NCBI GenBank assembly: GCA_045805065.1
Contig: JBJMMA010000051.1
Location: 1-28,462, forward strand
Origin: Bdellovibrionia bacterium
GTDB lineage: Bacteria > Bdellovibrionota > UBA1018
Length of the DNA stretch: 28,462 nt
Direction of reading: 5' to 3'
Each line of letters starts with the position of its first letter. Position 1 is the stretch's first letter. The translations under genes were made by a program, and so were the position numbers. Under the pieces are notes generated by a model. That model did no database searches. It was not told the DNA's origin and saw nothing but the letters and a program-made list of their open reading frames with translations. Below, one piece after another: positions 2,555-27,254 of this stretch.

Positions 2555-4402
2555 TTAATTCAGTGGCGGAACTGGAGGTGAGACTAAAGCCAATGGCTCG
2601 GAACGAAGGGCTACTGGACGTGCCAGGTTGATGGTGAACTTGATCCATTCACGAAGGATCCCGACACCCTCAAGCAGTTGGCGGTAACATTCAGCCGTCT
2701 CGCGACCGAGGTCGGAGATCTGCTCGCCCATCAGGTTGTGCATCAGCACTTTGGACATTTGGGAGAACGCGGCCAGTGAAGGCTGCGTTTGACCCAGTCT
2801 TTCAATCAGCGAATCCAGCTCCTGAAGCTTTTGCGACATCTCCTGGATCTGCTCACGATCACGGATACGCATGATCTTCTGCGATTTGAGCTTGGATGAA
2901 TGGCGATTGAGATGAATTGCCGTACGAGTCGCCTCATCACAGATCTTGGAGAGAACTTCGGCTGCTTCTTGAAGCTGTCTCAGGCTTTGAATGAGCTGAG
3001 GCGTGATCGCATTGCGAGTCAATTCCTGGCCCAGAGGAGGGACCCAGCCGCAATACCAGGCGCGAGCAATATGCCCCATGACCATGGAAGTCCAGTCATT
3101 GAGCTTGAGTGCATGCGGGCTGATAGCTTCATACACAACGCCACCGCCATCGCTTCCGCCACGGATGCGAGAGCGGAAAGCGCGGACATCGCGTGAGCGA
3201 GCCCCAAGTCCCTGCTTTTGCATATGTTGCTCGAACGTGAGCTGGCGACGAAAAACGGAGTCCTGAATCGCATAGCTCCAGGTTGCGTACACCAAGTCTG
3301 GCGTCAGCTGAGACTTGCACACATGCTTTGCCGCGGAGTTCGGAACTTCGCAGGCTTCACATGGCAGATTTGAGGCTACGACGTAGTGACCGTTTCCGTA
3401 AGGACCGGTCTCGTTCCAGCGAACGCCACCGAAAGAGAGATTCAATACGCGAGTGCCCAAAACGCTCGCCAGGTGAACTGCGGCAGTGTCTGCTGCAATC
3501 AACCATTGTGAGCGGCTTACGGCCGAAGCCCAGAGATCAAAGTCACTGCGACCTACGAGTGACAGAATCGATCCTGCGTGAGCTCCCTGGCGTTGCAGAG
3601 TGAGGATCAGGCGGTTCGCGCGCTCCTGATCTTCTGTCCCGCCCAGGAGAAAGACTCCGTATTCAGGATGATTTTTAATGATGTTTGAAATGAGGTAAGC
3701 CCAGTTTTCAGGCTCCCAGGTCTTTTCTTCTTTTCCCGCGCCCAGCTGGATCGCGATCCATTTCTTGGAGCGATCGCGCCAGCGATTTCCAAGATCCTGA
3801 TCGACTTTCACAGAGGCGGAGAGATTAAAGAAACTCTTCGAAGTCACGGGAGCATCGCCGTTATCTGCTGGCTCGCCCGCGTGGATCTGAAGAGCGGTCA
3901 AAAGCTGGGTCGTCAAAACGTCCGTCAGATGAATGTTTTGATGAATCCCGCCCTGAACCACAGCTTGAATGTAGTGACTCCAACCGTCCCGGTTGGAAAG
4001 ACCCACGTCAGTGCCCCGGGTGTAACCGAGCTTCACGCGAGCCGGGATCAGTCCTGTCAGATAGCTGCTTGCTTCAGAGTAAGACCAGTTCAGAACGAGA
4101 TCCCAGGGTTCCTGAACCAGGGGACGAACCCATCCTGCGATCTTTTGAAGCGCTTCTTTCTCGGATCCATTTCCATTCAGGACGGGCGTGAGAATCTCGT
4201 CTGAAGGGAAGGTCACGACGCTTTTCAGCCAAGGAACGCGTTTTGCGGCCTCGGCGAAACGCTCGCGAACCACAAAGTGGATCTCAAGCTGCGGATAAAG
4301 CTGCTGAGCCGCCCGCAGAGCCATCAGGCTTTGCAGCGTATCACCAAGCCGGGTGAGCTGAATGATTAAACAACGAATCGGCTTGGCAGGTGTTTTGTTC
4401 AC
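2555..4402 (-). CDS. Glycosyltransferase family 9 (heptosyltransferase-like) protein with C-terminal helical extension (615 aa)
   Basis: LIIQLTRLGD N-terminal motif, IQLGAG..K.W, and DTAAVHLASVLG...L.FG...ETGPYG are GT9 signatures. AAGGAG RBS before the GTG start. Confidence 0.85.
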   Translation of the reverse strand: MNKTPAKPIRCLIIQLTRLGDTLQSLMALRAAQQLYPQLEIHFVVRERFAEAAKRVPWLKSVVTFPSDEILTPVLNGNGSEKEALQKIAGWVRPLVQEPWDLVLNWSYSEASSYLTGLIPARVKLGYTRGTDVGLSNRDGWSHYIQAVVQGGIHQNIHLTDVLTTQLLTALQIHAGEPADNGDAPVTSKSFFNLSASVKVDQDLGNRWRDRSKKWIAIQLGAGKEEKTWEPENWAYLISNIIKNHPEYGVFLLGGTEDQERANRLILTLQRQGAHAGSILSLVGRSDFDLWASAVSRSQWLIAADTAAVHLASVLGTRVLNLSFGGVRWNETGPYGNGHYVVASNLPCEACEVPNSAAKHVCKSQLTPDLVYATWSYAIQDSVFRRQLTFEQHMQKQGLGARSRDVRAFRSRIRGGSDGGGVVYEAISPHALKLNDWTSMVMGHIARAWYCGWVPPLGQELTRNAITPQLIQSLRQLQEAAEVLSKICDEATRTAIHLNRHSSKLKSQKIMRIRDREQIQEMSQKLQELDSLIERLGQTQPSLAAFSQMSKVLMHNLMGEQISDLGRETAECYRQLLEGVGILREWIKFTINLARPVALRSEPLALVSPPVPPLN

Positions 4403-4626
4403 ACGGACTCCTTAACTAATGGAGAACGAAGTTGCAGAAAGGATGGGATTTCGTTTCCAGTCGCGGGAAGGGGAATAGGCGCTGGAGCTGGCTTTTGCTC
4501 GTCGAGAAGGGCGCGCAAGAAGCCCACGACCAGTCTTTCCACAGCGCCGTCGGCATCGTCCTGAAGCGCAGGCACGCGTGGATTTTCTTCGATCACTCCC
4601 TGAAGTCTGTTCATATCTGTAGCCAT
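4399..4626 (-). CDS. Small hypothetical protein (75 aa, MATDMNRLQG...)
   Basis: AGGAGG RBS (4631-4636) just before ATG at 4626. Stop overlaps the next start (GTGA), implying translational coupling. Preferred over the 4665 start in the ORF track. Confidence 0.65.
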   Translation of the reverse strand: MATDMNRLQGVIEENPRVPALQDDADGAVERLVVGFLRALLDEQKPAPAPIPLPATGNEIPSFLQLRSPLVKESV

Positions 4627-4661
4627 CGATCCTCCTGATTTCTGGCTGTTGCGGCATCTCT

Positions 4662-5972
4662 TCATGCTGGGTCCTGATGGAATCCTTCCTCAAGTCTTCG
4701 CAGAAGTTCCCGAGCGCCGTTGTGCTCGGGATTGAGCTGTTGAATGCGGAGGCAGGTCTGGCGCGCGTCCGATGCACGTCCAAGATGAAACTGCAGTCCC
4801 GCAAGGCTGTAGAGCAGGTGAATATTGATCGGGGCGACCTGGATGTAATCTTCCAGGAGCTTGGCCGCGACTCCGTAGTTCTTGATCTCATAGGCGCACT
4901 TCACAAGATGGAAGATCGCGGTTGGATTCTTGATCTCGATCTGAAGAGCGCGTGCAAACCACGCGTGAGCGGCAAACTTGTTCCCTTCGGCAAGGGCACA
5001 GGAGCCCAGCCCGCAAAGTGCCTGATGACTCTTTGGATTTGAAGCCAGGGCATCGTTGAAGTGGCGCTCTGCTTCTGGAATGCGATTGTCCTGAAGATAG
5101 AGAGCGCCTAAATTCGTGCAAATCTCATCCGCATGAGGCTGTACTTCAAGCGCTTTGCGATAATGGCGCTCGGCTTCTTTGAGATTACCCAGGCGTCCCC
5201 AGCAGTTTCCTGCCGTTTTATGGAACTCATAACGAGTTGCCGTATCGAGCTGGCGATGATGAAGCGCACGCTCGATGACTTCTGCAGCCTGTTGATCTTT
5301 CTTCTGACGAATCAAAAGAGAGGTGAGGGCTTTATAAGCATCCGGCGTTGGATGATAAGCAATGGATTCTTCGAAATTGATCCGCGCTTCTTCGAGCTTT
5401 CCTTCAGCTTCATAGCAGCGGGCGAGACCGAAGAGAGCCACAGAGGTTTTGTCTCCTGAGGATCCGATGGCCTTGTAAATATTACGAGCCAGCGCGTAAT
5501 CGCCCGAAGAGTAAAGGACGTCGGCGGATTGAAGAAGAAAAGGGAGATTGAGCTTTCCATCCGAAAGATAAATCCCATCAGCCACTGCCGGAGCCTTTTG
5601 CGCAGGCTGGGCTTTAGTGATGACCGGCTCATCGAATGTCGTAGCGCTGGCGGGCTGAACTTGGATGGAAGGTTCAAAGCCGGCATCAGCAAAAAAATCA
5701 GCAGCGGTTTCTTTCTTTGAGGCAGGGCGACTTGTGCGAGGTTTGACCTGAACAAAATACCCCATGACCGGGTTGCCGGCCGAATCGTCCAGAGCGTCGG
5801 TGTTTGGGTCGAAGTCGTTGAGAGCTTCTTCCAGAGTGCGCAGACGGACCATGCGATCGCCATGCATCGGAATCGGCACGACATCGACGATATCAAAGTC
5901 ATCATCAGCAACAGTGTCTGTTTTGTTGATAAGGGTCTTCTTCAGAAAGTCTGTTGGATTGGAATTCTTCAT
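4662..5972 (-). CDS. Tetratricopeptide repeat protein (436 aa)
   Basis: Multiple TPR-like repeats (ALFGLARCYEAEGKLEEA, NLGALYLQDNRIPEAERHFNDAL) after an acidic, low-complexity N-terminus. Confidence 0.85.
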   Translation of the reverse strand: MKNSNPTDFLKKTLINKTDTVADDDFDIVDVVPIPMHGDRMVRLRTLEEALNDFDPNTDALDDSAGNPVMGYFVQVKPRTSRPASKKETAADFFADAGFEPSIQVQPASATTFDEPVITKAQPAQKAPAVADGIYLSDGKLNLPFLLQSADVLYSSGDYALARNIYKAIGSSGDKTSVALFGLARCYEAEGKLEEARINFEESIAYHPTPDAYKALTSLLIRQKKDQQAAEVIERALHHRQLDTATRYEFHKTAGNCWGRLGNLKEAERHYRKALEVQPHADEICTNLGALYLQDNRIPEAERHFNDALASNPKSHQALCGLGSCALAEGNKFAAHAWFARALQIEIKNPTAIFHLVKCAYEIKNYGVAAKLLEDYIQVAPINIHLLYSLAGLQFHLGRASDARQTCLRIQQLNPEHNGARELLRRLEEGFHQDPA

Positions 5973-6421
5973 AAAGTCGTATCGAATCCTTCTCCGGGTT
6001 CACTCACCCAAGTGCTTTTGAACTTGCCAGCCAGTTCGTGGCTCTTGCGAGAGGCGATCAAATCCTCCTGGAGCTTTCTCTTGCGATCTTCGATGCGCTG
6101 AGTGAGCTCGTTATCCTTGAGGATGATCGATTGGATCAGACGATCTTTTTCGTTCAAGACCGCCTGTACGTTGGAAATCAGCTCAGGCGTCCGTCCCGAA
6201 AGTGGGAGAGCGCGGATGACTTCGGTGACTTTGCGATCATAGAGATCGAGGACTTTAAGAATCGCGTCGCGCTCGCGGATGAAAGAGTCGAGCTCGGCGT
6301 GAAAGTTCTCAGGAGATTGCTCCGAGCTTTCCTTCGCGAGGAAAACGTTCGATAGCTCGAGAAGTTTCTCGAGGCATCGATTCTTGCTTTGGAGCACTTT
6401 GATCACGTCCATGTGAGACAT
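5969..6421 (-). CDS. Helical flagellar chaperone-like protein (FlgN/FliT-like, 150 aa)
   Basis: All-helical coiled-coil sequence, coupled directly downstream of fliS (TAATG overlap) at the usual fliT position. Confidence 0.55.
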   Translation of the reverse strand: MSHMDVIKVLQSKNRCLEKLLELSNVFLAKESSEQSPENFHAELDSFIRERDAILKVLDLYDRKVTEVIRALPLSGRTPELISNVQAVLNEKDRLIQSIILKDNELTQRIEDRKRKLQEDLIASRKSHELAGKFKSTWVSEPGEGFDTTL

Positions 6422-6813
6422 TATCCTTTAGAGTGACTCGACTGATTCACCTGTTTGACCGCTTCCTTCCATCCTGAAAGGAGCGTCTCCATCAGCTTCT
6501 GCACGGTCTCGAGATGTTGCTTGTTATTCTCAAGGTTGGCCTTCACCAACGTCTCCGTCATAAAATTATAGAGCCGTTCTAAGTTCTGAGCAATATCGCC
6601 GCCCACTTCAAAATCTAAAGTGTTGGCGAGCTCGTTGATAATGTCATGAGCCTTGCCAATCGCCATTCCTTTGGCGGGAATATCCTTGCGATCGATCGCG
6701 TCCGCCGCTTTTTTGACGTTCGTGATCGCAGCCTCGTACAGCATAATGAGGATTTGGCCGCGGTTAGCGGTTTTGACTGCCATTTGCTTGTATTGATTTG
6801 CGCCGTAGTTCAT
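6421..6813 (-). CDS. fliS: Flagellar export chaperone FliS
   Basis: YKQMAVKTA...LIMLYEAAI...KAHDIINELANTLDFEVGGDIAQNLERLYNFM...GWKEA is the classic FliS pattern. Follows fliD. Confidence 0.95.
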   Translation of the reverse strand: MNYGANQYKQMAVKTANRGQILIMLYEAAITNVKKAADAIDRKDIPAKGMAIGKAHDIINELANTLDFEVGGDIAQNLERLYNFMTETLVKANLENNKQHLETVQKLMETLLSGWKEAVKQVNQSSHSKG

Positions 6814-6841
6814 GACTTAAGGTCCCTTGCTGGTTAGTCTG

Positions 6842-8248
6842 TTATCCGCCTAATAACGATTGAACGAGATTACCGCCACCGCCCCCACCCGGGAGGGTTG
6901 CGCTCAAGTATTGTTGCTGTCTTTGCATGGCACCCAGCGAAGCCTCAAGACGTGAGAACTGCTCGGTCAGCGATTGCTGACGACGCTCCAGGTTTCGCTG
7001 TTTCATATCGATCTGGTCATCAATGCCCTTGATGCGAGACTTGAGAGAGTTCTCGCGTTGAGCAAGCATTCCGTTCCCGCTTTGCGTGTAGCCGGCGAGA
7101 AGGGATTTCATCTGATAGCCCAGGCCGAAAGAACCTGTGAAAATCTCGGAAAGGCCTTCAAAGTCCTTTTCCATGAACTTCTGGAACTTATCTTCCTTGA
7201 AGGTGAGGGCGCCTGATTTGTCGAACTCAATGCCAAGGTCGTGCATGAAGTAGATCTTGAAGTTCTCGTCGTCTGGCTTACCAACGGCGAAGCCTTCATG
7301 CATCAAGTTGCGAAGACGATATTCGATCGTCTGAAGCCCGCTATCACCTGCGAAAGTGGTGCTGGTATCCGAGTCCTTATCGATCTTGTTCTGATCGTTG
7401 ATGAACTTCAAAATCACGTTCACCTGTTCGACGAAGTTCTTCACCTTGCCGGAGATCTTTTGGAAGTCCTCGGTGATCGTCATGGTGAAGGGCTGATCAG
7501 GCTTGGCTTGCTTGAGATGCAGGTTCACGCCGGGCAGAAAGTCCTGAATGTCGTTGCTGTCCTGCTCGATCGGAAATCCATCCACTTTCAATGAAGCGTT
7601 TTTCGCGTCACGCGTGTCGTCCAGGAAGAAATCTTCTTCCCCATCCAGAAAGTAAAAGTCAGGGAACTTGACGTTATTAGCCTGGCCTTCCTTTTTGGCA
7701 GTCATGATGAGTTTCCAGGGCTTGTCTTCGTTGGAGGCGTCCTTTACCACGGCCGCGCGAACAGGGAAGTCCGCTTGCTCATTGATGATGCGCGCGATGC
7801 CACGAAGGCTGGATGCATCTTCCTCGACGTATACTTCTTTTGTATCGCCATCCGGCATGTCGAGAGTGATGAAACCCATTCCCATGATGGGCTTGTCTGG
7901 ATTTTCAAATGCGTTGGAAATGACCGAAGTCCGGGCAGCAAGTTCATTGACGCTGATTTCGTAGGTACCTGGGCTTGCGCGGTCTTTATCGACCGTAACG
8001 TCCACTTGCGGAGCCCCGTCACCGAGATTGACTTTAAGTTCACGCAAGCGCTTGAAAGCGGAGATCTCATCGACGGCTTTTTCAAGGCCACCGAACTTGG
8101 AGCGGAATTCATTGAAGAGTTTTAGGCGCGTGTTCTCCTTGCCCTTGCGAGCTTCGAGCTTTTTGATTGGCTCGCCTTCGGCCTCGACGATTGTCTTGAC
8201 CGCCTGTTTGAACATGCCCCCGCCAACGGGGTCAAAACGCAGACCCAA
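6842..8248 (-). CDS. fliD: Flagellar filament capping protein FliD (468 aa)
   Basis: FliD N-terminus (IVEAEGEPIKKLE, PGTYEISVNELA), NASLKVDG..I...SN.I.D.LPGV.L.L, and C-terminal LTEQFSRLEASLGAMQRQQQYL. AGGAGG RBS, TTG start. Confidence 0.92.
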   Translation of the reverse strand: MGLRFDPVGGGMFKQAVKTIVEAEGEPIKKLEARKGKENTRLKLFNEFRSKFGGLEKAVDEISAFKRLRELKVNLGDGAPQVDVTVDKDRASPGTYEISVNELAARTSVISNAFENPDKPIMGMGFITLDMPDGDTKEVYVEEDASSLRGIARIINEQADFPVRAAVVKDASNEDKPWKLIMTAKKEGQANNVKFPDFYFLDGEEDFFLDDTRDAKNASLKVDGFPIEQDSNDIQDFLPGVNLHLKQAKPDQPFTMTITEDFQKISGKVKNFVEQVNVILKFINDQNKIDKDSDTSTTFAGDSGLQTIEYRLRNLMHEGFAVGKPDDENFKIYFMHDLGIEFDKSGALTFKEDKFQKFMEKDFEGLSEIFTGSFGLGYQMKSLLAGYTQSGNGMLAQRENSLKSRIKGIDDQIDMKQRNLERRQQSLTEQFSRLEASLGAMQRQQQYLSATLPGGGGGGNLVQSLLGG

Positions 8249-8360
8249 GCTTCAATCCTCCTGATACTTCTCCTGAACTTCCTGCTCAGGGTGGACACCG
8301 GTCCTTTCACTAGTATGATGGTGGCGCCGGGACTTGCCAATCGGCAGTACTTGCCTAACC

Positions 8361-8504
8361 AATCACAGTCATTGAAATGAAATTGAACAGGGCATGTTAA
8401 AAGCCGAGTCGTTCCCAGGCAGGATGCCGAATGGGAATGCGACAGGAAGTCGCAACGAGGTCTTTTAACATGCCCTGTTCAATTTCATTTCAATGAATGT
8501 GATT
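8361..8504 (+). repeat. Palindromic repeat element, copy 1
   Basis: 43-bp inverted arms (8361-8403 and 8462-8504, 1 mismatch) around core 8404-8460, CCGAGTCGTTCCCAGGCAGGATGCCGAATGGGAATGCGACAGGAAGTCGCAACGAGG. Confidence 0.92.
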
Positions 8505-8563
8505 TGCTCAACAGTCTTAAGACGGTTTTCAGTTTCGCCGGGTTTTTGACGGTTTCTTTGGCT

Positions 8564-8593
8564 TTGACGGCGGGCGATGGAGGATTCCATAAT
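8564..8593 (+). promoter_or_regulatory. Putative sigma70 promoter for the 8642 gene
   Basis: TTGACG-N18-CATAAT about 50 nt upstream of the start. Confidence 0.45.
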
Positions 8594-8641
8594 CTAAGGA
8601 ATATTGGTGTGCGCTCCACAACCTATCTTTAGGGAAGTCGA

Positions 8642-10240
8642 TTGCGAACTTTAAGATGCCTCAGGCAAGTTTTCTTATGCACGGTGCTTTTACCGCTCCT
8701 GCTTTTACTCGCCTCTGCTGGCGCTGATTGCGCGCCAGTAAAAAATGCGACTTACGAAGAGTTTCAAAGTCTGGTTCGCGAGAGCGTCGCTAAAGTTCCA
8801 GATCTGAATCTTCTCTGGCGGTGGCAAGTGAAGGGCGATGAGCCGGTCTACTTTGGAGGAGGAGGGCTCAGGGGCCTTTTGAGGTGGCTGGAGTATCAAC
8901 TCAGAAATAAAAGTGTCGCTCAGGTGAGAGCGCTCCGGGTTCCAAACGTGGATCAGCTGATCTCGGTTTGGGCTGATAAAGATATCTATCATGATCGAGT
9001 GGACGCGAACTGGTTTAAGTCCAATTTTCCGGCGTATGGGGATTGGGATGTCCTGACTCGCACATTTTATGATGCGAGCATTGAGGCAGGAGGCCCAGGG
9101 ATTGAGAAAATTCGAGTGAGTCCGACTCATATTGACGATCCCCTGGGAGGGCTTGCCGCTTTTTATCAGGGGAAACTCAACTTCGTAGATGCGCCTGAAG
9201 AGGTTTTCCAGAAGTTCAGAGGCGCCAGCGCGATCCAGCTTAAAGATAATTATAAATCTGCCCTGGTTTTGCGGGCATTGAGATTTTCCAGGGATCTGCC
9301 TTCCGTCACCTTAGATGATGAAACCTTGAGAGCAATGAAGGCCGCAGTGAAGTCCGAAGAGAATCTGATTAAAGCGAATAATTATTGGCTCCAAAAGTCC
9401 CTTTATAAGCTGTACTTGTCGACAGGCGAAAATAGAAAAAAAACGATCCAGGCGCTGGACTCCGTGGGTCTCACCAAAACGCTTGCAAGGAATGGCTATT
9501 ATCTGAATCGGCCAAACGCTGACGGATGGAGACACTATTTATTTCTCGAGCCACGAGTAAAGGGTTTGACCATTGATGATCTCACAAGGTTCAAGTTAAG
9601 CGTTAATTCCATTGCTGAGATTGCTGCAGCGATGGAGAAGATGCTCCGGGGAGCAAAGGCCGAGGACGTGGATGCCATTTTGGATCCAGTTGTAAGAAGT
9701 CCTACTCCCGAGTATTTGTTAAATATCGCATTTATACGAAAGTCTAAGACTTCTGCGTTGAAGCGCTCTAAAGTTGCTGGCTGCATCATCGATGCCCTGG
9801 CTAAAGACGTGATTATTGACGGACGATACAGCGCCCGCAACTTGACAATCGTCGCAGCTGGAGCCGGCTGGTACCTCTATGAGAAGGCTATTCAAGGTCT
9901 GAACAGTTGCACGTCGAATACGAAGGTATTGGATTTAGATACCTTGGACCTGAACGGAAAGAGTCCTGAGCTTTGTGTGTATTATCTCACCACGTCTTGC
10001 CTTTTGTATAATCAGCGTCGGGCAGAGTCGTTTTGCAATAAGATCAACAACTACTATCCAATGAAGGCGCTTCAATTGCTGCATGCCAGAGGGGTTCCGA
10101 TCGATGCTTCTTCGGTAGAATTCGCCCAGAGAATTGACACCGACGCTCAGATCGAGTGCGTAAAGAACTTGAAGAATGAGCAACTGACTTCTGCGGCATT
10201 CAAGACAGGCGCAGCCGAGCTGTGTCGGGCGCATAATTAA
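8642..10240 (+). CDS. Exported protein with an N-terminal CCA-adding/poly(A) polymerase-like nucleotidyltransferase domain (532 aa)
   Basis: Hydrophobic signal peptide. YFGGGGLRG, DKD (DxD), IDDPLGGL and LVLRALRF occur in the order and spacing of the class II NTase motifs GGxVRD, DxD, DPxGG and LRxxRF. Cys-rich C-terminal part is unassigned. Confidence 0.65.
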   Translation: MRTLRCLRQVFLCTVLLPLLLLLASAGADCAPVKNATYEEFQSLVRESVAKVPDLNLLWRWQVKGDEPVYFGGGGLRGLLRWLEYQLRNKSVAQVRALRVPNVDQLISVWADKDIYHDRVDANWFKSNFPAYGDWDVLTRTFYDASIEAGGPGIEKIRVSPTHIDDPLGGLAAFYQGKLNFVDAPEEVFQKFRGASAIQLKDNYKSALVLRALRFSRDLPSVTLDDETLRAMKAAVKSEENLIKANNYWLQKSLYKLYLSTGENRKKTIQALDSVGLTKTLARNGYYLNRPNADGWRHYLFLEPRVKGLTIDDLTRFKLSVNSIAEIAAAMEKMLRGAKAEDVDAILDPVVRSPTPEYLLNIAFIRKSKTSALKRSKVAGCIIDALAKDVIIDGRYSARNLTIVAAGAGWYLYEKAIQGLNSCTSNTKVLDLDTLDLNGKSPELCVYYLTTSCLLYNQRRAESFCNKINNYYPMKALQLLHARGVPIDASSVEFAQRIDTDAQIECVKNLKNEQLTSAAFKTGAAELCRAHN

Positions 10241-18346: not shown

Positions 18347-19114
18347 TTAGTAGCTGCCTCCTGAAGTGGTGGTTCCTGCAGTTCCAGCGCTCTGCTGGAC
18401 GTTTGTGCCGCCAGCTACTCCAGCTGCTGAGCTAGGAGATGTGGCCGGAGAAATTCCACCTGCTACGCCTCCTCCAATAACTCCTCCTCCAATGATTCCT
18501 CCGCCTCCGATACCAGCTGATTGTGTCGGAGTTGCCGTTGGCGTAGCCGCGGTTCCAGCAGAGCTACCCACTTGCAGCGCGCCTGACATGCTGGCTGCTC
18601 CGTGAATTGCGCAGTGGTAGGCGATGATTCCCGAGACGCTTCCATCGAAGGTTCTGGTGTAGCTTTGTCCAGGCTGCAACGTGCCCGAGTCAAAGCTGCC
18701 ATCATCTGCGGTCACCGTATGTGGAGCGTTATCATTATTCACCCAGGTGACGGTCGTTCCCGCAGGAATGACAAGCGGGTTAACTCCGTAAGCGGCTGGG
18801 CCCATTCCAATAGAACCTTGTGGGATCGCTACCGTCACGCATTGTGGAACGGTTCCAGGTGATGCCGTGGACGTTGGTGTAGCTCCAGGTGAAGCGGTTG
18901 CTTCAGGCGACGCTGTTGCGCCAGGTGAGGCCGTCGCACCCGGAGACGCGGTTGCGCCAGGCGAACTCGACGTTAATGGGCAGGGATAAAGGACGCCAGG
19001 ACTTGCTGAAGCCCCTGGATTAGATGTGCCACCATTTTGTCCGTAAACTGCAATTGCGCCAAAGACGCTTAAGCTTGCGACTCCGGCTGCAAACAGCCCG
19101 AAAGCTTTTTTCAT
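18347..19114 (-). CDS. Exported cupredoxin (plastocyanin/azurin-like) protein with Ser/Thr/Pro/Gly-rich flanks, paralog A
   Basis: Signal peptide. GTTVTWVNNDNAPHTVT...FDSG.L.PG...YHCAIHGAASMSG supplies His, Cys, His and Met type-1 copper ligands. ATASPG repeats. Confidence 0.88.
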   Translation of the reverse strand: MKKAFGLFAAGVASLSVFGAIAVYGQNGGTSNPGASASPGVLYPCPLTSSSPGATASPGATASPGATASPEATASPGATPTSTASPGTVPQCVTVAIPQGSIGMGPAAYGVNPLVIPAGTTVTWVNNDNAPHTVTADDGSFDSGTLQPGQSYTRTFDGSVSGIIAYHCAIHGAASMSGALQVGSSAGTAATPTATPTQSAGIGGGGIIGGGVIGGGVAGGISPATSPSSAAGVAGGTNVQQSAGTAGTTTSGGSY

Positions 19115-19378: not shown

Positions 19379-19999
19379 TTACCGGGTGTTGCTGGTGGTA
19401 TAACTATAAACTCCTCCACCCGTGCTTACTGGCACGGTACCACCGGCGATTCCTGCAGATTGAGAAGGTGAGGCCGAAGGCGAAGCACTCACTCCGGGCG
19501 ATGCTCCAGCGGCACCACCGACTTGCAGCGCGCCTGACATGCTGGCTGCTCCATGGATTGTGCAATGGTAAGGGATATTTCCTGAGACGCTTCCATCGAA
19601 AGTTCTCGTGTAGCTTTGTCCCGGCTGGAGCGTGCCTGAGTCAAAGCTTCCGTCATCTGCGGTCACCGTATGTGGAGCGTTGTCATTGTTCACCCAGGTG
19701 ACGGTCGTTCCCGCAGGAATGACAAGCGGGTTAACTCCGTAAGCAGCTGGGCCCATCCCAATTGCGCCTTGTGGGATCGCAACAGTCACGCATTGTGGTG
19801 TAGTGCCCGGAGATGCAGTCGCTCCGGGTGAAGCGGTCGCACCAGGCGAGCTTGTTGTGGCTGGGCAGGGATAAAGGACACCAGGACTTGCTGAAGCCCC
19901 AGGGTTAGATGAGCCTCCTCCTTGTCCGTAAACTGCGATTGCCCCGAAAATACTAAGACTTGTGACTCCGGCTGCGAACAGCCCGAAAGCTTTTTTCAT
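19379..19999 (-). CDS. Exported cupredoxin protein, paralog B (206 aa)
   Basis: Near-identical core to paralog A (YHCTIHGAASMSG). Start placed at ATG 19999 (MKKAFGLF) from the GGAGA RBS and alignment with the paralog. Confidence 0.88.
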   Translation of the reverse strand: MKKAFGLFAAGVTSLSIFGAIAVYGQGGGSSNPGASASPGVLYPCPATTSSPGATASPGATASPGTTPQCVTVAIPQGAIGMGPAAYGVNPLVIPAGTTVTWVNNDNAPHTVTADDGSFDSGTLQPGQSYTRTFDGSVSGNIPYHCTIHGAASMSGALQVGGAAGASPGVSASPSASPSQSAGIAGGTVPVSTGGGVYSYTTSNTR

Positions 20000-20075
20000 G
20001 GGTTCTCTCCTTCTCCATTGTGAAGAGTCAGAATTGGCTCGCTTGTACAAAGAAATCGACGATTTGAATGGGGGA

Positions 20076-20091
20076 TGCATCGAGGATTCCA
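20076..20091 (-). promoter_or_regulatory. Putative sigma54 promoter of cupredoxin B
   Basis: TGGAATCCTCGATGCA (GG-N10-GC), 77 nt from the ATG, the same as in paralog A. Confidence 0.7.
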
Positions 20092-20161
20092 TGGCGGGAA
20101 GAGTTAAGCTGACTTTTCGAAGCCGCTTCTTTTAAAAGTGATTCAGGAAGCTTAATTTCAG

Positions 20162-22438
20162 CTACCGAAGAAGCGTCTTTAATCTGGCTATGAGAGATGG
20201 AGCGCAATTGGCGCGGAGAGGAGATTGCAGTTTCATTCGTTCTTCGCGGACGATGTTGACCAAATTATTTACGAGCTTGTTAAACTGCTTTTCCTCTTTG
20301 ATTTTTTCAAGCCTGTCTTTGGCAGGTTTCATATCCTCCGGATCGGATAATACCATCGCAAGCAGCGCATCGCCCATTAGGAACGCAAGCTGGCTTTGGA
20401 ACATAAGTTGAGGCTCATTCCGAGTGACGAGAGCCACTGTTCCATGCAACGCGACCATGGCTAGCCGTGCACGAAGCGTTTTAAGTCGGAGCGCAATCTG
20501 TTCTTTGGTTAAGGCGGGGTCATTCATTACTTTCGATAAAAATGGTTCGATGGATTGGACTCGATCGGAACCTAAGTGAAGGAGACCTTCGGCGATATTC
20601 TTTAAGGCGAGTTCGCGCTGATGCTCAGAAAGAAGCTTGAGCGGTTGCACTGCGTCCGCGAATCTTTTCTGAAACGCAGTGACCTCAGCACGGTCCGGTT
20701 TTGGAGCTTCCGAAAGCAATTGAAGATCAATCATTAAAGAGTACAACTTCTCCTTCAATCCATCAGGAATGTAATGCGCATCTTTAAATGAATTTTCGAG
20801 TACGGAAAAAGGGATAAAATTATCAATGGTTGGGACATTGTTCCAAATTTCTCGAATTTCTTCTGGCGCGGAAACATTGAGTCGTACAGCTTGATTGAGC
20901 TGCTTCAGATCCTCAAACGTGGCTGCTTTTCTTGCGAGAGTAATGAGCTCGTTTAACGGGATCAGGTTTCGAGTGTGGCCTTTGGGATTAGATAAAACGG
21001 CGCTGTTTTTGACGACGTAAGCATGGGATACATAAGGGTAACATAGAATATCAGCATCAAAAGCATGAGCGAATTCCGAGTAGGGATCCTTGCCTGTTTC
21101 AAGCTTTTCGTAAAAACCTTTGAGTTGATGATTACTGCGACTTAGAAACTCTTTAAAAACGCGCGCCCCTTCTCCGCGGGTAACGTCGATGACTTTTGCC
21201 GTTGGTTTGACTTCAAACTCAACGACCCGGTCCACTGTTCCAGCAGATCTGATGGCAAGTGCCAAATTGTCGCGCCTGACTGAGTAAAGTCCTGAGCCTG
21301 CCGATCCAGCTTCTGACGGGAAAACTCCGCTGAATAGATTCGATCTGAAAAACTCTTCTGTTCTTGTCCCGTGATAGAGTTTTCCATCGGGAAATTCTTG
21401 CGAAGTGGGAGAATAAAGTTTTTCAGGATCGGTTTGATAATGCTTCATGTTCTCCGCGACAGTGGCAGGATCGCGATAGGTCGCAAAGAGGTATTGATTG
21501 ATGGGCGCGGCATCTTCGTATCGGTTAAGCACATTGTTCATGTCAAAGTGCTTGTACAGAAGGTAAGTGGCCGTGGGATTGATGTAGGAACGAAAACTTT
21601 TCGCTACAGTATCGTTAAAGTATTTCTTGAATTGTGGGTTGGCAAAATAAGGAGCTAGCTCATCCTTAGCCTGCGCGATGATCTTCTTCGCAGCCGTTTC
21701 GGACTCATGATCGAATGTGAAAGCATTTTTTGGATCAGGTCGATTCTGGCCGTAGCTGTTGTAATAATCGATTGAGAGAGTTCTTAAATATCTCAGCGCC
21801 AGCAGAATTTGATGATTTGCTTTTTGTTTTGCGTAATGGGTCGTTTCGAATACTTCTTTCGGAGTTACATGCAACGTGGGGCGACCATGAAAGATTTCGT
21901 CCATTCCGTCACCGAATGTCCTGTTTTGAATGATACCCTTTGATCCAATCCGAATTTTTTCAACGGGCAGGTAACCTTGATCGATCTCGCTCTTGCCCAT
22001 CGCGCTGGATGGATTAAATCGCTCGCTTTTGATGTAGTCAATCTTGGTTAGACCATAGATGTCTTTGTTGAGTGCAAGCTCTCGGTCACTCACGATGTCC
22101 ACATCCGAGTCCATGCTCAGAAATTCTTTCGGCTGAATGATCGCTCGGGAACGAAGCTCTTCGATCTTTTTCTTGGCCTGCTCGGGCGTATCGACGCCGA
22201 TGAACTGACGTTTTACCCAGTAGATGAAGTCGCGCGATGTGCCACCAAAGAATTCGGCCTGAGGATTTTCTTTCCAAGCGTCTTTGAAGAGAGACACCTT
22301 TTGACTCAGCTCGCCTGTCAAGGCGGAGAACTCCTCCTTCGACATGAGCTTGTCGGGAGATTGAGCAAAGGCGGATAGGGTAGTGAAAAGCCAAAGAAGA
22401 AGGGCTGATGCTCTAACTGTTCGTGCAATTTTCAGCAT
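20162..22438 (-). CDS. Exported protein: class II nucleotidyltransferase-like domain plus ADP-ribosyltransferase-like domain (758 aa)
   Basis: Sec signal (...TTLSAFA-QS) and GGAGGA RBS. EFFGGTSRD, DSDVDI and LLALRYLR are NTase-like. KLYHGT, AGSGLY, VVEFEV and AYVVKN resemble the PARP/ART core. Confidence 0.65.
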   Translation of the reverse strand: MLKIARTVRASALLLWLFTTLSAFAQSPDKLMSKEEFSALTGELSQKVSLFKDAWKENPQAEFFGGTSRDFIYWVKRQFIGVDTPEQAKKKIEELRSRAIIQPKEFLSMDSDVDIVSDRELALNKDIYGLTKIDYIKSERFNPSSAMGKSEIDQGYLPVEKIRIGSKGIIQNRTFGDGMDEIFHGRPTLHVTPKEVFETTHYAKQKANHQILLALRYLRTLSIDYYNSYGQNRPDPKNAFTFDHESETAAKKIIAQAKDELAPYFANPQFKKYFNDTVAKSFRSYINPTATYLLYKHFDMNNVLNRYEDAAPINQYLFATYRDPATVAENMKHYQTDPEKLYSPTSQEFPDGKLYHGTRTEEFFRSNLFSGVFPSEAGSAGSGLYSVRRDNLALAIRSAGTVDRVVEFEVKPTAKVIDVTRGEGARVFKEFLSRSNHQLKGFYEKLETGKDPYSEFAHAFDADILCYPYVSHAYVVKNSAVLSNPKGHTRNLIPLNELITLARKAATFEDLKQLNQAVRLNVSAPEEIREIWNNVPTIDNFIPFSVLENSFKDAHYIPDGLKEKLYSLMIDLQLLSEAPKPDRAEVTAFQKRFADAVQPLKLLSEHQRELALKNIAEGLLHLGSDRVQSIEPFLSKVMNDPALTKEQIALRLKTLRARLAMVALHGTVALVTRNEPQLMFQSQLAFLMGDALLAMVLSDPEDMKPAKDRLEKIKEEKQFNKLVNNLVNIVREERMKLQSPLRANCAPSLIARLKTLLR

Positions 22439-22469: not shown

Positions 22470-25400
22470 CTAGAATAACGACTCTTCGATATGGCGCTTA
22501 ATGCACTTGAGTTCCATTCTTGGATGAGCTGTGCCTTCCTTCACTTTGGACACCACGGCTGATTTGATTTCATCAAGCTCAGCGGTCGCGGCAGGATTGC
22601 CTTTGGCGCGAGTCATCGACTCGTCAAACGTTCTTGCAAGAAGACCGCTGGAGAGTTTCTTGGCTTGCTCAAAGTGAGGAGTGCCTTTCAATGCATCGAG
22701 CTCTTTTGCGATGGAGGCAGAGAGAGTTTCCATAAAGAGGCCATCTTTGCCTTTGTAGCCAAACTTATCGTAGTCGACCTTCTTGATCAAGGCGTCGAGG
22801 TCTTCCTTGGTCAGATAACGGTCCTTCATGACCTTATTGAAGACAGGCTCGAACTCTTTGGACTCGATGCCTTTATGGATCACTTCATCAGCCATGCTAT
22901 CCACGACTTTATCGATGATCTCGCTCGCGATCGCTTTCTCTTGAGCAGAGCTTCCTTCTCTCACGCCTGGGAACAGGCCGTTATTGATGAGCATGTTCTT
23001 CAATTTTTCAATTTTGCCTAAATCATCGGCTGCTTCTTTGCCTGCACCGCGAGCGCTACCGTCATTGCCACCGCCCGTGGCGTAGCTTCCGTGGTAGAAG
23101 ACTGCGCGATGGCCTGCGGAGAGCTCAACCATTCGCTTAAGAACACTCGAAAGGTTTTGCACATCGGCCACTTCTTGCGCCTTAGGACGGACATATCCTA
23201 AGTAACCTGGGCCTGGGATCAGGCTCACAAAGTCCGCGCCGTTCTGGCGATTGAGCATCGCATTGGTCATCCAGTGTCCGTAGACCTCGTGGACCGCGAC
23301 TTCATGCAGAAGCTCGGGCGTATACTTCATCTTCTCAACGGACTTGAGGTCATGAACGGAAGGAGTGCGGTTGATGCCATCCGCTGATGCATGCTTTTTG
23401 AATTCCCAGGTGCGTTTCTCGCCACCGCCGGGAAGTTTCTTGCCTTCAAGGATGACTTCCTCGCCATCGACGAACCATTGAGGATGCTCGCCATCCGGGA
23501 TCTTCATCTCAATCTTTTGGATGCGATGGCCCTTGATGCGTTGAATATCCGCCATCATGGTTTTAAGCGGGCGGAACATCATGGCATTGAAGCCCTCATC
23601 CACCTCGCGCATTCCAAGCTTCACCGTACTCAGGCGATTAACAACGGACTCCGTGGCGTTTTCTGGGATGATGATTTCAAGATTTGGATTGTTAGCAGCT
23701 TTTCTGATCTCATCGATGGCTTTCTTGATCTTGATGCCGCCAACTCCCAGCGATACTTCGCGAGGCTGTGGGCCCATGACATAGATGTGACCCAAGCGCG
23801 CAATCTTTGGAGCATCAAGACCTTGTCTTTCAAGGTTCTGGACGATTTCAGAGCGAGTGAGTTTTTCGCGAATCTTCTTCACCAAAGATTCAGTTTCTGG
23901 ATTGTCATCCAGCCCTGAGAACATCTCTTGAAGACTGTTGCCGGTGATGCCCACGACAAAGCCGCGAGCATCCTCGTATTTTCCGTTAATCTTGAGTTTC
24001 TGCTCGTCCAAGAGCTCATAGAGCTCTTGAAGGACAGCGATTTTTCCGCCTTTTTGGCCTTCGACTGACGTGCCTGAGCTCTTACCGATTTCAGACATCA
24101 ATTCGTCAAAGAGAATGATCCCGCCTCCAGCGGACTTGCGGCTCTTGAACCAGCGCTCAAAGTCGGTTTCTTTGTTTGATCCGGAGATACCCGTTGGAGG
24201 GCGAAGATAGTCACTCAAATCCCATGGATGATCGACGCCAGTGATTTTGAACATGGCCTTCTCGTCACCATAGAGAACTTTTGCCATGGCTTTGAAGGTT
24301 TCAGTTTTCCCGTTGCCGGAAGTGCCTAAGAGAGTGAAGACTGCTTTGTCGTTCCAATCGACGGATTTGCTCTTCAGCACGCTTGCCATATCGGCCAACA
24401 CGTCCTGGTTACCTTTGACATGTTTGCTCATCTCTTCCTGGAAATTATCAATCCGCTTCATCGTTACAGGATTGCTGCCCCAAGGATTCTTCTCTTCGTT
24501 GATCAGCGCACCCAGTGCGAATTTCTCAGATTTTCCGTCTGAGCTGTCCACGATCAGATTTTGAGCGGGAAGTTGACGGCCATCATACTCAATATGTGTA
24601 TCTTCGATATGCGCTTTAAACGTTTTTCCGCGATCACCAAAGTAAGGGGTGAGCTTGCTGAAGATCTTTTCCTGGAGCTGTTCTTCAGCGTAGCTGTAGC
24701 CTTTTTCAAACTGGTAGTGATCAATGTTCAGTGCTTTGTTCACTGCCTCGGGCGAGATTTCAAAATTCACGCCGTAGTCGAGCTTGGCATCTTTGATGAA
24801 CTTCTTAGCTTTGCGTTGAGCGGCTTCCATGACTTCCTCTTTGTTCGGAGGAAGGATGTAAATGCCTTTGTAACGCCGTTTTTGCTTATTGGCTTCTTGA
24901 GCAATGGAGCTTGTGTCGCCGCCTGGATTGCTCTTTTCTACGATCTCGCCAACATAGCGATCAAAGAGAGCCGACATTTGATCAGGCTTGACGCGCTCGA
25001 CAGGCTTGCCATCGATCAGTATTGTTTCAGTGAGATTAGCTCGGCGAGTATTGTATTGCTCCCAAGTCATCTTGTTGGCAGCGTTGGTCGGGATCATCAA
25101 ATCTTGGCCGATATTGGTATTCTGCCAAATGACAAACTTACTCGCATCGTATTCTTTGCCAAGACCATCGGTAAACTTCTTGTCCGTGATCATATTGGTC
25201 AAAAGCTGGACCACATCGTGATGAAGGTAGTCAGCCTCCTCGATTTTGATCACGCCGCCTGCCGGGTGCTCTTGGATGAATTTCGTAAGAATGGATCTTT
25301 GTTGCTCAGAGCCTACGGTTCCGACAGGGGAACCAATCAGTTTATTGAGCTCAAGACCGCCGTTCTTAAATTCGGCGCCGTTGATGGTCAGCATCGCGTT

Positions 25401-27254
25401 GTTAAAGAAATGCTTAGCCACCGACTCGGCCCCATAGCTCTTACCGCCCCCTGGAGGGCCGAAGGCCACAACGGCTGTCATCTTGCCCTTATGAGATGAG
25501 CCGAAGTGATCTTTTAAGATCTGCTTCATCTCAGTCATTGCTCCGTCGTTTCCGCCGTAGTCTTCGCGGAAGTCGGTCCACTGCTTATTGAAGTTATCGT
25601 TAAACTTTGGATCGCCTGGGATCAGGGGAGTCTTGAGCTTAGACGCGATATATTCGCGGACATCATCCGCAGTGAGATTGAAGTCGCCCTTTCTTCCCTG
25701 AGTAGCAAGCGCGTTCAGTTTGCGAGAAAGCGCGCCCTCAAGGAGTTCCTTGGTTCCGGTTGGATTTCCGGCGTGAGGCTGCTCAGAAGCTGCAAAGCGG
25801 TAAGCATAGTCAAAGGCGTCATCATCAATGCTCGAGAAACTGGCGCCATTCTTTTTATGGGCTTTCTGCCAAAGCGGAACGTTGCTTTGCTTGATGAGCT
25901 TGATCGTATCGTCACGGCCAAACTCTGGAACGTGAATTTCAGAGAAGCGGCGGCTGAACGCGCTGTCTTTGAAGAAGTCACGCGCTTCGGCTGACGTGGT
26001 TGAAAAGATCATATTGACCTTAGGGTCATCTCCCAATCCATGTTGCATCTCAGTGAGATAGCCCTTCAAGGCATTGCGGGTCATCGCAGTGGAAATGTGA
26101 GCTTCGTCGACATAGAGAATCACACGACGGTCCAAGGCTTTGGAAAGTGCCTTCGCATTGGCAACGACGTTTTTTGGCGCACTTGGGTCCGAAGGATTGG
26201 TCACTGTCGTGATAGGAAGCTCGAGGATGATAGGAGGCTTCTCGTCATGAATCCCTTGCGTTCCTTGAACAAACTTATCCGATAGTAGTTTTAAGATAGT
26301 AGTTTTACCGACGCCAGCTTTCCCGGTTAAAAGAACGTGGCCTTTTTCGACGCGCGTGAGGGCATCGATCATTTCTTGGGATTCGACCTCGCGGCCAAAG
26401 TATTTGATGAAGCTCTTATTTGGATCGTTATGAGTAGTGACGGATTTGTCGTAATGATTGCTTTCAGCGGAGTTGACGAACTTCATCAAATCATTAGCGT
26501 CGTCGCCGCTGACTTTTCCGGCTTTCACCTGCTCATCCAAAAGCTCGCGAACGGTCTTGTGCTTTTCGGCTGCAATCTGTCCGGTCGCGGTCAGCGCAGG
26601 GGGCCTTGCCGTGAAGGCCGGGCCGGCTGGAGCGCGCAATGTATCAGTAGCAACAGCCGATTTGAGGCTGTCATCGATCAAGTTAAACTGGGGAGGAAAG
26701 CCCACCTTGGTTTTTGTGCTTGGATCAGTGTGGTCGTACTTTTGAACAAACTCAGCAAACTGCTGCTTGCCTTGAGTGTCCAGGAGTCCGCGGTTAAGAA
26801 TCTCGCGGATCTCATATAGGCCCGTATCGCCGGTGCGATTGGCGAGATACCAACCGGTGCCGTCTCCGCGATTCGTTGCTCCACGACCTTTGTAAAGAAG
26901 CTCGAGCGCCGTAAGAACGGTAAGTCTTGCTTCCTCGGGTCGGTTGAAGGCTTTGCCCTGGGCTGAGTGAAGAATTGTTTCGAGACGATCGATCGCGGAG
27001 GTGACTTCGTGTGGATGCTGGATTTTGGGTAGCGCGACCCCGAAGCTGTTTTGGGGGAGTGTCGCTCTCAACTCATCTGTGATCTTTTTGATCGCGTCGA
27101 CGAGCTTTTGATTCTCGGCATCCTCAGTCGCGCTGACCGGATTCATCGCTCTGGCTGGCGTGATCCACAGCGGATTGAGACCGAGTCCCAACGAACTAAT
27201 GATAAGTGCGAGTACTACACCTTGCTTCACCTGTTTTGCGACACGGACGCTCAT
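22470..27254 (-). CDS. Large signal-peptide-bearing protein with three Clp-like AAA+ modules and a C-terminal M41/FtsH-like peptidase domain (1594 aa)
   Basis: Walker A/B pairs GKAGVGKT/LYVDEAH, GPPGGGKS/IKIEEAD and GTSGNGKT/ILFDEL. C-terminal VAVHEVYGH...VSLIP...LGYV...LSAGHRA...TGGGND parallels the FtsH protease domain. N-terminal hydrophobic stretch ends PARA-MNP. Confidence 0.75.
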   Translation of the reverse strand: MSVRVAKQVKQGVVLALIISSLGLGLNPLWITPARAMNPVSATEDAENQKLVDAIKKITDELRATLPQNSFGVALPKIQHPHEVTSAIDRLETILHSAQGKAFNRPEEARLTVLTALELLYKGRGATNRGDGTGWYLANRTGDTGLYEIREILNRGLLDTQGKQQFAEFVQKYDHTDPSTKTKVGFPPQFNLIDDSLKSAVATDTLRAPAGPAFTARPPALTATGQIAAEKHKTVRELLDEQVKAGKVSGDDANDLMKFVNSAESNHYDKSVTTHNDPNKSFIKYFGREVESQEMIDALTRVEKGHVLLTGKAGVGKTTILKLLSDKFVQGTQGIHDEKPPIILELPITTVTNPSDPSAPKNVVANAKALSKALDRRVILYVDEAHISTAMTRNALKGYLTEMQHGLGDDPKVNMIFSTTSAEARDFFKDSAFSRRFSEIHVPEFGRDDTIKLIKQSNVPLWQKAHKKNGASFSSIDDDAFDYAYRFAASEQPHAGNPTGTKELLEGALSRKLNALATQGRKGDFNLTADDVREYIASKLKTPLIPGDPKFNDNFNKQWTDFREDYGGNDGAMTEMKQILKDHFGSSHKGKMTAVVAFGPPGGGKSYGAESVAKHFFNNAMLTINGAEFKNGGLELNKLIGSPVGTVGSEQQRSILTKFIQEHPAGGVIKIEEADYLHHDVVQLLTNMITDKKFTDGLGKEYDASKFVIWQNTNIGQDLMIPTNAANKMTWEQYNTRRANLTETILIDGKPVERVKPDQMSALFDRYVGEIVEKSNPGGDTSSIAQEANKQKRRYKGIYILPPNKEEVMEAAQRKAKKFIKDAKLDYGVNFEISPEAVNKALNIDHYQFEKGYSYAEEQLQEKIFSKLTPYFGDRGKTFKAHIEDTHIEYDGRQLPAQNLIVDSSDGKSEKFALGALINEEKNPWGSNPVTMKRIDNFQEEMSKHVKGNQDVLADMASVLKSKSVDWNDKAVFTLLGTSGNGKTETFKAMAKVLYGDEKAMFKITGVDHPWDLSDYLRPPTGISGSNKETDFERWFKSRKSAGGGIILFDELMSEIGKSSGTSVEGQKGGKIAVLQELYELLDEQKLKINGKYEDARGFVVGITGNSLQEMFSGLDDNPETESLVKKIREKLTRSEIVQNLERQGLDAPKIARLGHIYVMGPQPREVSLGVGGIKIKKAIDEIRKAANNPNLEIIIPENATESVVNRLSTVKLGMREVDEGFNAMMFRPLKTMMADIQRIKGHRIQKIEMKIPDGEHPQWFVDGEEVILEGKKLPGGGEKRTWEFKKHASADGINRTPSVHDLKSVEKMKYTPELLHEVAVHEVYGHWMTNAMLNRQNGADFVSLIPGPGYLGYVRPKAQEVADVQNLSSVLKRMVELSAGHRAVFYHGSYATGGGNDGSARGAGKEAADDLGKIEKLKNMLINNGLFPGVREGSSAQEKAIASEIIDKVVDSMADEVIHKGIESKEFEPVFNKVMKDRYLTKEDLDALIKKVDYDKFGYKGKDGLFMETLSASIAKELDALKGTPHFEQAKKLSSGLLARTFDESMTRAKGNPAATAELDEIKSAVVSKVKEGTAHPRMELKCIKRHIEESLF

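Follow-up and report, generated by a model that had tools for sequence, protein, structure and literature searches.

We analyzed a 28,462-nucleotide (nt) stretch of DNA from a Bdellovibrionia bacterium (hereafter, the window; NCBI GenBank assembly GCA_045805065.1, contig JBJMMA010000051.1) and found in it a single open reading frame (ORF) of 1594 amino acids (aa) whose product, P0001, joins three Clp-type AAA+ (ATPases associated with various cellular activities) modules to a peptidase domain homologous to that of FtsH, behind an N-terminus of the export type. All of these parts are known. New are their combination, the lengthened zinc motif of the peptidase, the features typical of an exported protein, and a distribution confined to predators, Bdellovibrionota being a phylum whose members prey on other bacteria. 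What the sequences show is the identity of the domains, the conservation of the motifs, the restriction to this phylum, and sequence features of the export type, in a small family of proteins. We favor the reading, to which we give about an even chance, that P0001 is a Sec-exported, self-contained ATP-dependent metalloprotease that acts on prey material in places supplied with prey ATP.

AAA+ proteases are cytoplasmic machines. Those of the Clp/Hsp100 type form one or two rings and work with a separate peptidase, and FtsH forms one ring, is held in the membrane, and faces the ATP pool. The P0001 family breaks four rules of this scheme, in its number of rings, which is three, in an M41-type peptidase that belongs to the same chain, in a longer zinc motif, and in its export features. 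An earlier note on this DNA, made from the sequence alone, had proposed a self-contained unfoldase-protease of unusual architecture. The layout was borne out, and the architecture is real, but it is not unique to P0001, as it defines a family; the word “unfoldase” was weakened by the pore loops described below. The motif positions in that note were all confirmed with offsets of 1–3 nt at most (Table 1).

Domain parsing and alignments to ClpA, ClpB, CLPB, and ClpC1 agree with the proposal in the note that the three AAA+ modules (D1–D3) resemble the first nucleotide-binding domain (NBD1), the second (NBD2), and another NBD2 of Clp proteins. A Pfam scan of P0001 gave three AAA stretches, and Clp_N was not among the matches. 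The NCBIfam matches were partial and far under the cut-offs: ClpB (93.8 against 1232), ClpA (92.2 against 993), and TssH (117.6 bits against 884.95). The type VI secretion system ATPase TssH/ClpV was rejected as an identity on this score and on the count of type VI secretion families among the 19 neighboring ORFs, which was 0. D1 (Walker B VDEAH, residues 382–386; Arg pair SRRF, 434–437) aligned with NBD1 of ClpA (ClpA residues 189–360, E = 2e-10), and a longer alignment of ClpA 188–608 with P0001 285–716 (E = 3e-19) covered an NBD1 + NBD2 tandem whose nucleotide motifs are all in place. D2 (pore loop GTVG, 645–648; Walker B IEEAD, 671–675; KRRY, 792–795) aligned with NBD2 of ClpB (residues 600–725) and also with human CLPB, and D3 (pore loop GISG, 1022–1025; Walker B FDELM, 1049–1053; ARLG, 1152–1155) with NBD2 of CLPB and ClpC1. 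D2 and D3 resemble each other weakly (blastp, 25% identity over 104 aa, E = 4e-4), and the duplication is therefore old.

The conservation of these motifs was assessed in an alignment of 31 full-length sequences, i.e., P0001 and 30 relatives, at 30–51% identity. The Walker A Lys is kept in 29/31 sequences in D1 and in all 31 in both D2 and D3. The Walker B acidic pairs are retained; that of D2 is EE rather than DE, as the note had observed, in 29/31 sequences. The arginine motifs SRRF, KRRY, and ARLG are conserved in the family, and in D2 and D3 the Walker A Lys, the Walker B acidic pair, and the Arg residues are present in 31/31 sequences or nearly so. Two members, P0030 (probably the protein encoded in locus L010) and P0031, have lost the Walker A of D1 (AKLGVDKES and AKTGVDTRG, respectively), its Walker B, and its Arg pair, and their D2, D3, and zinc motif are intact; the first ring can therefore turn into a pseudo-ATPase. 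Class I Clp/Hsp100 proteins (ClpA, ClpB, ClpC, Hsp104, and HSP101) share with P0001 the NBD1 character of D1, the NBD2 character of D2 and D3, the Walker motifs, and the Arg fingers. P0001 differs from them in its third module, in having a signal-peptide-like N-terminus and no Clp_N, in a peptidase that is fused instead of the separate ClpP, and in the pore-loop Tyr (KYRG in NBD1 and GYVG in NBD2), which is not conserved in its family.

The C-terminal domain is homologous to the M41 peptidase of FtsH, although P0001 does not reach the gathering score of PF01434 (M41) and its motif, H-E-x-x-G-H, fails the HEXXH pentapeptide test. PF01434 was absent from the best 25 of the 33 Pfam families that matched the whole of P0001 at E ≤ 1. 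The likeness became visible at the level of profiles and models. A profile built from a 14-sequence C-terminal alignment of P0001 and related loci (A2) matched PDB entries for FtsH (four chains, E = 3.9e-5, 6.3e-5, 0.0039, and 0.004) and AFG3L2 (E = 0.15), and placed HEvyGH on HEa-GH with a gap of one residue in FtsH. The AlphaFold2 (AF2) model computed from A2 (predicted local distance difference test score, pLDDT, 79.9; predicted template modelling score, pTM, 0.70) has the M41 fold: all 8 of its Foldseek matches in the PDB at E ≤ 0.001 were FtsH, AFG3L2, YME1, or the Ycf2-FtsHi complex, and the matches to the FtsH family covered about 200 aligned columns with template modelling scores of 0.32–0.40 when normalized by the query length. 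The note had already called this region M41-like and HEVYGH a variant of the FtsH motif HEAGH that is longer by one residue, and both descriptions hold.

Within the domain, HEVYGH (residues 1322–1327) is followed by AGHRA (1380–1384) and DDLGK (1410–1414), an order that parallels HEAGH, GGRAAE, and TGA.ND in FtsH. In full, the former FtsH motif reads LGGRAAE, and the third zinc ligand of FtsH is D495, an Asp at the start of the helix that follows the TGA loop. The H, E, G, and H of the zinc motif are kept in 30/31 sequences, the remaining one being truncated, and the Asp pair 1410–1411, at the start of model helix 182–195, is kept in 29/31; an insert of roughly 10–15 residues with low model confidence precedes the DDLGK helix. 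H1322, H1327, and D1411 would be the predicted zinc ligands. P0001 resembles FtsH and its relatives (AFG3L2 and YME1) in the C-terminal fold, in profile similarity, in carrying AAA+ and peptidase in one chain, and in the motif order of its family (H-E..H, L.aG.RA, TGg, and D.lg). It differs from them in HExxGH in place of HExxH, in the insert ahead of DDLGK, and in having no Pfam M41 match, and from FtsH also in its three Clp-type modules instead of one classic-clade AAA and in one N-terminal hydrophobic segment instead of two transmembrane helices and a periplasmic domain. A two-copy complex prediction for the M41-like domain (A2 residues 60–350) scored 0.00, which weighs neither way on self-association.

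A precedent for the longer spacing comes from dipeptidyl peptidase III (DPP III, family M49), whose zinc motif is HEXXGH, with HEXXH in some orthologues, according to the accessible parts of two reports (PMC5805324; PMC9820243). By this analogy, and as far as those parts go, the longer spacing need not abolish zinc binding, and they suggest that zinc can be bound through a motif of either length. DPP III shares with P0001 the hexapeptide and the occurrence of pentapeptide variants in the same family, but it is unrelated in fold and family and is a precedent for the zinc spacing only.

A word-indexed search identified 30 full-length relatives of P0001 (1306–1869 aa, 32–52% identity). An exhaustive profile search of 1.84 billion representative sequences detected 100 proteins at E ≤ 1e-3, of which 42 reached E ≤ 1e-30; the latter comprised the long family and its fragments, and the weak tail was FtsH-like in length. 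Among GTDB species genomes, 23 loci matched, and 19 of these carried the HExxGH family proper, all in Bdellovibrionota-type metagenome-assembled genomes (MAGs) labeled Bacteriovoracaceae, Bacteriovorax, Bacteriovoracia, Bacteriovoracales, Bdellovibrionales, Pseudobdellovibrionaceae, or Oligoflexales, with one “Deltaproteobacteria bacterium.” The nearest match, at 67–79% identity, was in a Bacteriovoracaceae MAG. A second group from Bdellovibrionota (P0032, P0127–P0152, and a 1163-aa ORF in locus L019) shows about 23% identity to P0001. It resembles the P0001 family in its signal-peptide-like N-terminus, its two or three Clp-type modules, its C-terminal peptidase, its Cys-poor body, and a Cys tag, but it has the canonical HEAGH (26/27; one HEMGH) and forms a separate clade. 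Its proteins are unnamed or are labeled “ClpA,” “ClpC,” or “AAA family ATPase”; P0032 exceeds the PF01434 cut-off (54.8 bits), and the others were assigned by precomputed annotation. The ORF in L019 (9305–12796, + strand, a Bdellovibrionales MAG) has a signal-peptide-like N-terminus, a pair of NBD2-like AAA+ modules, of which one carries the pore loop GYIG, the canonical M41 motifs with HEAGHA, and the C-terminus ..PNIPCSKILTEKAS, and is a two-ring form of this superfamily.

In a quick maximum-likelihood tree of 96 M41 regions (39 FtsH, 27 of the second group, and 30 of the HExxGH clade), each of the three groups formed one clade, with SH-aLRT (Shimodaira–Hasegawa-like approximate likelihood ratio test) values of 95, 99, and 100, respectively. 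The HExxGH clade and the second group were sisters (SH-aLRT 95), with long stems and unsure deep joins, and this sister relationship implies a single origin of the insertion. Fusions of Clp-type AAA with M41 are already present, unannotated, in the databases: ESM Atlas clusters from other phyla and from phages pair M41 with AAA, AAA_2, or ClpB_D2-small, and there is a Bdellovibrionota cluster of 1292 aa; we treat all of these as leads only. The literature that we consulted, including the accessible parts of PMC11656739 and PMC12546842, contains no description of the architecture; the supplementary protein tables of proteome and genome studies of Bdellovibrio could hold relatives. A defense-system or phage origin was also considered and rejected, PADLOC and PHROGs giving generic AAA matches only.

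Three features of the sequence point to the export of P0001. First, the N-terminus reads MSVRVAKQVKQ-GVVLALIISSLGLGL-NPLWITPARA followed by MNP, i.e., residues 1–36 contain a K/R-rich n-region, a hydrophobic core of about 15 residues, and an A-x-A site (ARA) before M37. By our heuristic, such an N-terminus is present in 25/31 sequences of the HExxGH family and in 22/27 of the sister group, compared with 5/53 Clp hits and 24/39 FtsH hits, and small-x-small sites follow the core in most relatives. Second, a second hydrophobic segment occurs in 0/31 and 0/27 of the two groups and in 39/39 FtsH sequences (Clp was not scored). The note had listed a signal peptide and had set the protein beside FtsH with its two transmembrane helices. 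Third, the body is free of Cys in 25/31 and 16/27 of the two groups, compared with 4/53 Clp and 0/39 FtsH sequences. Furthermore, P0001 is positively charged before the core and acidic after it, a distribution that by the positive-inside rule would put the body outside. We also considered translation from M37, which would leave the signal out, and rejected it on the grounds that 25/31 sequences retain the hydrophobic N-terminus; no obvious Shine-Dalgarno sequence was seen at either the first Met or M37. Whether the signal is cleaved or serves as an anchor, three apparently functional ATPase rings would thus lie where the bacterium has no ATP.

Two further parts are characteristic of the family. 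The N-domain, with the motifs GRG..DGTGW and GFPP, is specific to it and was modeled as ten helices (AF2, pLDDT 83.2); it had no Pfam match, and Foldseek found 0 PDB structures at E ≤ 0.001 (best E = 0.17). It probably recognizes a substrate or partner. At the other end, C1584 is the sole cysteine of P0001. A Cys lies within the last 25 aa in 29/31 family members and 26/27 members of the sister group, compared with 6/53 Clp and 2/39 FtsH sequences; in these otherwise Cys-free proteins (P0002–P0032 and P0127–P0152), it is 4–20 residues from the C-terminus, mostly in the form C-x-x-hydrophobic-hydrophobic. We know of no sorting signal that matches this tag, which could act as a tether, form a disulfide, or serve for recognition. 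It is common to neighboring secreted proteins and may represent a signal for sorting or tethering that has not been described before.

From the N- to the C-terminus, the proposed machine would thus consist of a signal peptide, a helical N-domain, one NBD1-type and two NBD2-type modules, an M41-like peptidase, and the Cys tag. On the model of Hsp100 and FtsH, a hexamer would hold three stacked ATPase rings above a protease chamber and feed polypeptide into it, and folded prey protein would be broken down in the prey cytoplasm or in the permeabilized prey cell. Neither the periplasm nor the medium contains ATP, yet the ATPase motifs are under strong selection; therefore, the enzyme would most likely work with prey ATP. 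The formation of a hexamer, zinc binding by H1322, H1327, and D1411, the export of the protein and the cleavage of its signal, proteolysis that depends on ATP, and the targeting of prey are all predictions of this proposal.

However, several results weigh against a prey-directed exported protease. The C-terminal 365 aa (residues 1230–1594) matched no Pfam family at E ≤ 10 and no NCBIfam model, and the HExxxH spacing differs from the HExxH of zincins. None of the pore-1 loops of P0001 is aromatic. D1 has no aromatic residue at the position of ClpA KYRGDFE. The second residue of the D2 loop (GTVG in P0001) is T in 16 sequences, Y in 10, H in 4, and L in 1, and that of the D3 loop (GISG) is I in 13, F in 8, V in 5, and Y in 4; aromatic loops thus occur in 10/31 sequences at D2 (Y) and 12/31 at D3 (F or Y). 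Such loops argue against canonical Tyr-driven threading. The degenerate D1 of P0030 and P0031 means that three rings are not always needed. The signal-peptide call is our own heuristic, based on the n-region, the h-region, and the A-x-A pattern, and it cannot separate anchors from signals because 24/39 FtsH sequences pass it by virtue of their first transmembrane helix. A Sec signal alone reaches only the predator's own periplasm, and we know of no route from there into the prey. Lastly, no named cultured predator is among the relatives, all of which come from MAGs or metagenomes.

The alternative that survives best, to which we assign a small but real probability, is a protease-dead pulling or translocation motor in which the M41-like domain is an oligomerization platform, as in the FtsHi/Ycf2 import motor of chloroplasts; an exported triple ring would then unfold proteins or carry them across a membrane and might, for instance, deliver Cys-tagged effectors such as the product of the neighboring gene into prey. 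The HExxxH spacing, which is unlike that of every canonical M41, and the presence of Ycf2-FtsHi motor complexes among the Foldseek matches are consistent with such a motor. So is the presence of HSP101 among the sequence matches, HSP101 being part of the PTEX export machine of Plasmodium. Additionally, the next gene downstream belongs to a signal-bearing, Cys-tagged family in the window, in L011, and in L017, and such a gene is also found close by in L016, L001, and L004. However, catalysis explains the retention of H, E, G, H, and DD in 29–30 of 31 sequences better than scaffolding does, the sister group retains the canonical HEAGH, and M49 peptidases, in the accessible parts of the reports cited above, use HEXXGH.

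A quality-control protease that faces the cytoplasm from an uncleaved N-terminal anchor, as a single-helix analogue of FtsH, is quite improbable in our estimate. It would have ATP at hand in the cytoplasm, its protease domain is homologous to that of FtsH, and the FtsH controls that pass the signal heuristic could be read in its favor. Yet the K/R residues before the core and the acidic residues after it would place the body outside, the core of only about 15 residues is followed in most relatives by small-x-small sites, the Cys-free body differs from the cytoplasmic Clp and FtsH controls, and without a second helix in any of the 31 sequences nothing returns the chain to the inside. ATP-independent housekeeping in the predator's own periplasm, with the AAA+ modules as passive binding or scaffolding elements, would agree with a Sec signal that carries no further nameable targeting signal and with the degenerate D1 of P0030 and P0031, but it is very improbable, as the near-invariant Walker A Lys, Walker B pair, and Arg of D2 and D3 are unexpected without nucleotide hydrolysis.

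If P0001 is indeed exported and active, a predator can deploy an ATP-driven unfoldase in a compartment fueled by its victim, which would add a new principle to how prey is digested or effectors are delivered. The family would also be a natural test of HExxGH replacing HExxH in an M41 fold and of translocation by non-aromatic pore loops. The nearest published idea in the accessible parts of the literature is that of outward-facing FtsH paralogues of phytoplasmas, predicted to direct their ATPase and protease parts toward the ATP-containing cytoplasm of the host (PMC6981957). Like the proposed machine, these are AAA+ zinc proteases of a bacterium inside another cell with predicted exposure to host ATP; unlike it, as described there, they have a single AAA and a debated transmembrane topology, without a Clp module, three rings, or HExxGH, and the prediction is computational only. 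A broader and rather unlikely proposal is that predatory Bdellovibrionota export a triple-ring AAA+ machine of ~1 MDa that runs on prey ATP, either as a protease that takes folded prey proteins apart or as a PTEX- or Ycf2-like motor that recognizes the shared C-terminal Cys tag and drives co-encoded effectors (e.g., the adjacent nucleotidyltransferase/ART-like protein described below) across a prey membrane. If true in either form, the machine would be the first ATP-dependent unfoldase of a bacterium to work outside the cytoplasm of its producer.

Table 1. Positions of P0001, its parts and motifs, the adjacent gene, and A3-family genes (window coordinates unless a locus is named).
Feature	Position	Strand	Basis
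Whole gene P0001, 1594 aa	22470..27254	-	ORF and full-length relatives
Signal-peptide-like N-terminus, residues 1–36	27147..27254	-	own heuristic
All-helical N-domain, family-specific, residues 37–280	26415..27146	-	AF2 model
AAA+ module D1, ClpA/ClpB NBD1-like, residues 285–520	25695..26402	-	alignment to ClpA
Walker A of D1, GKAGVGKT, residues 311–318	26301..26324	-	
AAA+ module D2, ClpB NBD2-like, residues 568–800	24855..25553	-	Pfam AAA_2 594–725
Walker A of D2, GPPGGGKS, residues 599–606	25437..25460	-	
AAA+ module D3, second NBD2-like, residues 945–1165	23760..24422	-	PF00004 975–1105
Walker A of D3, GTSGNGKT, residues 977–984	24303..24326	-	
M41-like metallopeptidase domain, residues 1300–1575	22530..23357	-	profile, AF2, Foldseek
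HEVYGH, residues 1322–1327	23274..23291	-	
C-terminal Cys tag CIKRHIEESLF, residues 1584–1594	22473..22505	-	conservation counts
P0126, 758 aa, 31 nt downstream of the P0001 stop	20162..22438	-	ORF
A3-family member	L011 14704–16026	+	A3 family
A3-family member	L017 2163–5393	+	A3 family
A3-family member	L016 294–5267	-	A3 family
A3-family member	L001 860–3199	-	A3 family
A3-family member	L004 3–1538	+	A3 family
A3-family member	L011 8504–9532	-	A3 family

The window is ordinary chromosome, containing fliD-fliS, grpE-dnaK-dnaJ, a radical S-adenosylmethionine gene, and two cupredoxin-like genes. No terminator-like site was found in the 31-nt gap between the genes for P0001 and P0126, which are probably co-transcribed, and P0126 is a possible functional partner of P0001. 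It has a signal-peptide-like N-terminus, only two Cys, a C-terminal Cys (terminus ..NCAPSLIARLKTLLR), and the motifs FFGGTSRD and YHGTR...GSGLYS. Searches of Pfam, NCBIfam, and PDB sequences gave no match; the Atlas leads were nucleotidyltransferases of the Gad2/PolyA_pol type and PARP/ADP-ribosyltransferases (ART), all with scores <0.85. Its family (A5) comprised 6 relatives, of which the 2 with a source label were from Bdellovibrionota MAGs. In a profile-profile comparison, A5 matched another family, A3 (probability 78%, E = 1.7e-5, 315 columns); the single sequence of P0126 compared with A3 by hhalign gave a probability of 1–2%.

Members of A3 bear signals and are 343–1658 aa long; one has C-terminal ankyrin repeats, several have a Cys near the C-terminus, and the conserved part contains no Pfam domain. 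An A3 gene directly follows the AAA-M41 gene in L011 and L017, precedes it divergently in L016, and lies within ~6 kb of it in L001 and L004, so that linkage was found in 5 of about 12 genomes with usable flanks and is not universal. In L001, the A3-family gene and the AAA-M41 gene flank a 1838-aa ORF (3199–8712, - strand), the product of which shows a signal-like N-terminus and only two Cys, one of them near the C-terminus (..ILAKCAQKLELL..). A tblastn search with seven neighbors from the window against the 23 loci gave no matches at 1e-5.

On the other side of P0001, 27397–28236 (+ strand) encodes a divergent macro-domain protein (PF01661, partial NCBIfam PRK00431) with a signal-peptide-like N-terminus, whose macro domain is of the ADP-ribose-binding or hydrolase type. 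That a secreted macro domain should neighbor what may be a secreted ART-like protein is suggestive, but the related loci do not conserve this pairing. A 532-aa ORF at 8642–10240 (+ strand), with a signal-like N-terminus, the C-terminus ..AAELCRAHN, and no Pfam or NCBIfam match, shows a weak blastp likeness to P0126 (E = 0.01 over ~200 aa). A 159-aa Arg/Ser-rich ORF at 4412–4891 (- strand) overlaps the start of a gene for a tetratricopeptide repeat protein (4662–5972, - strand); it has no family match and is probably not a gene. The two cupredoxin-like genes (18347–19114 and 19379–20092, both - strand) are tandem paralogues of the plastocyanin/azurin family, and their products have signal-like N-termini and C-terminal tails rich in Ser, Gly, and Ala.

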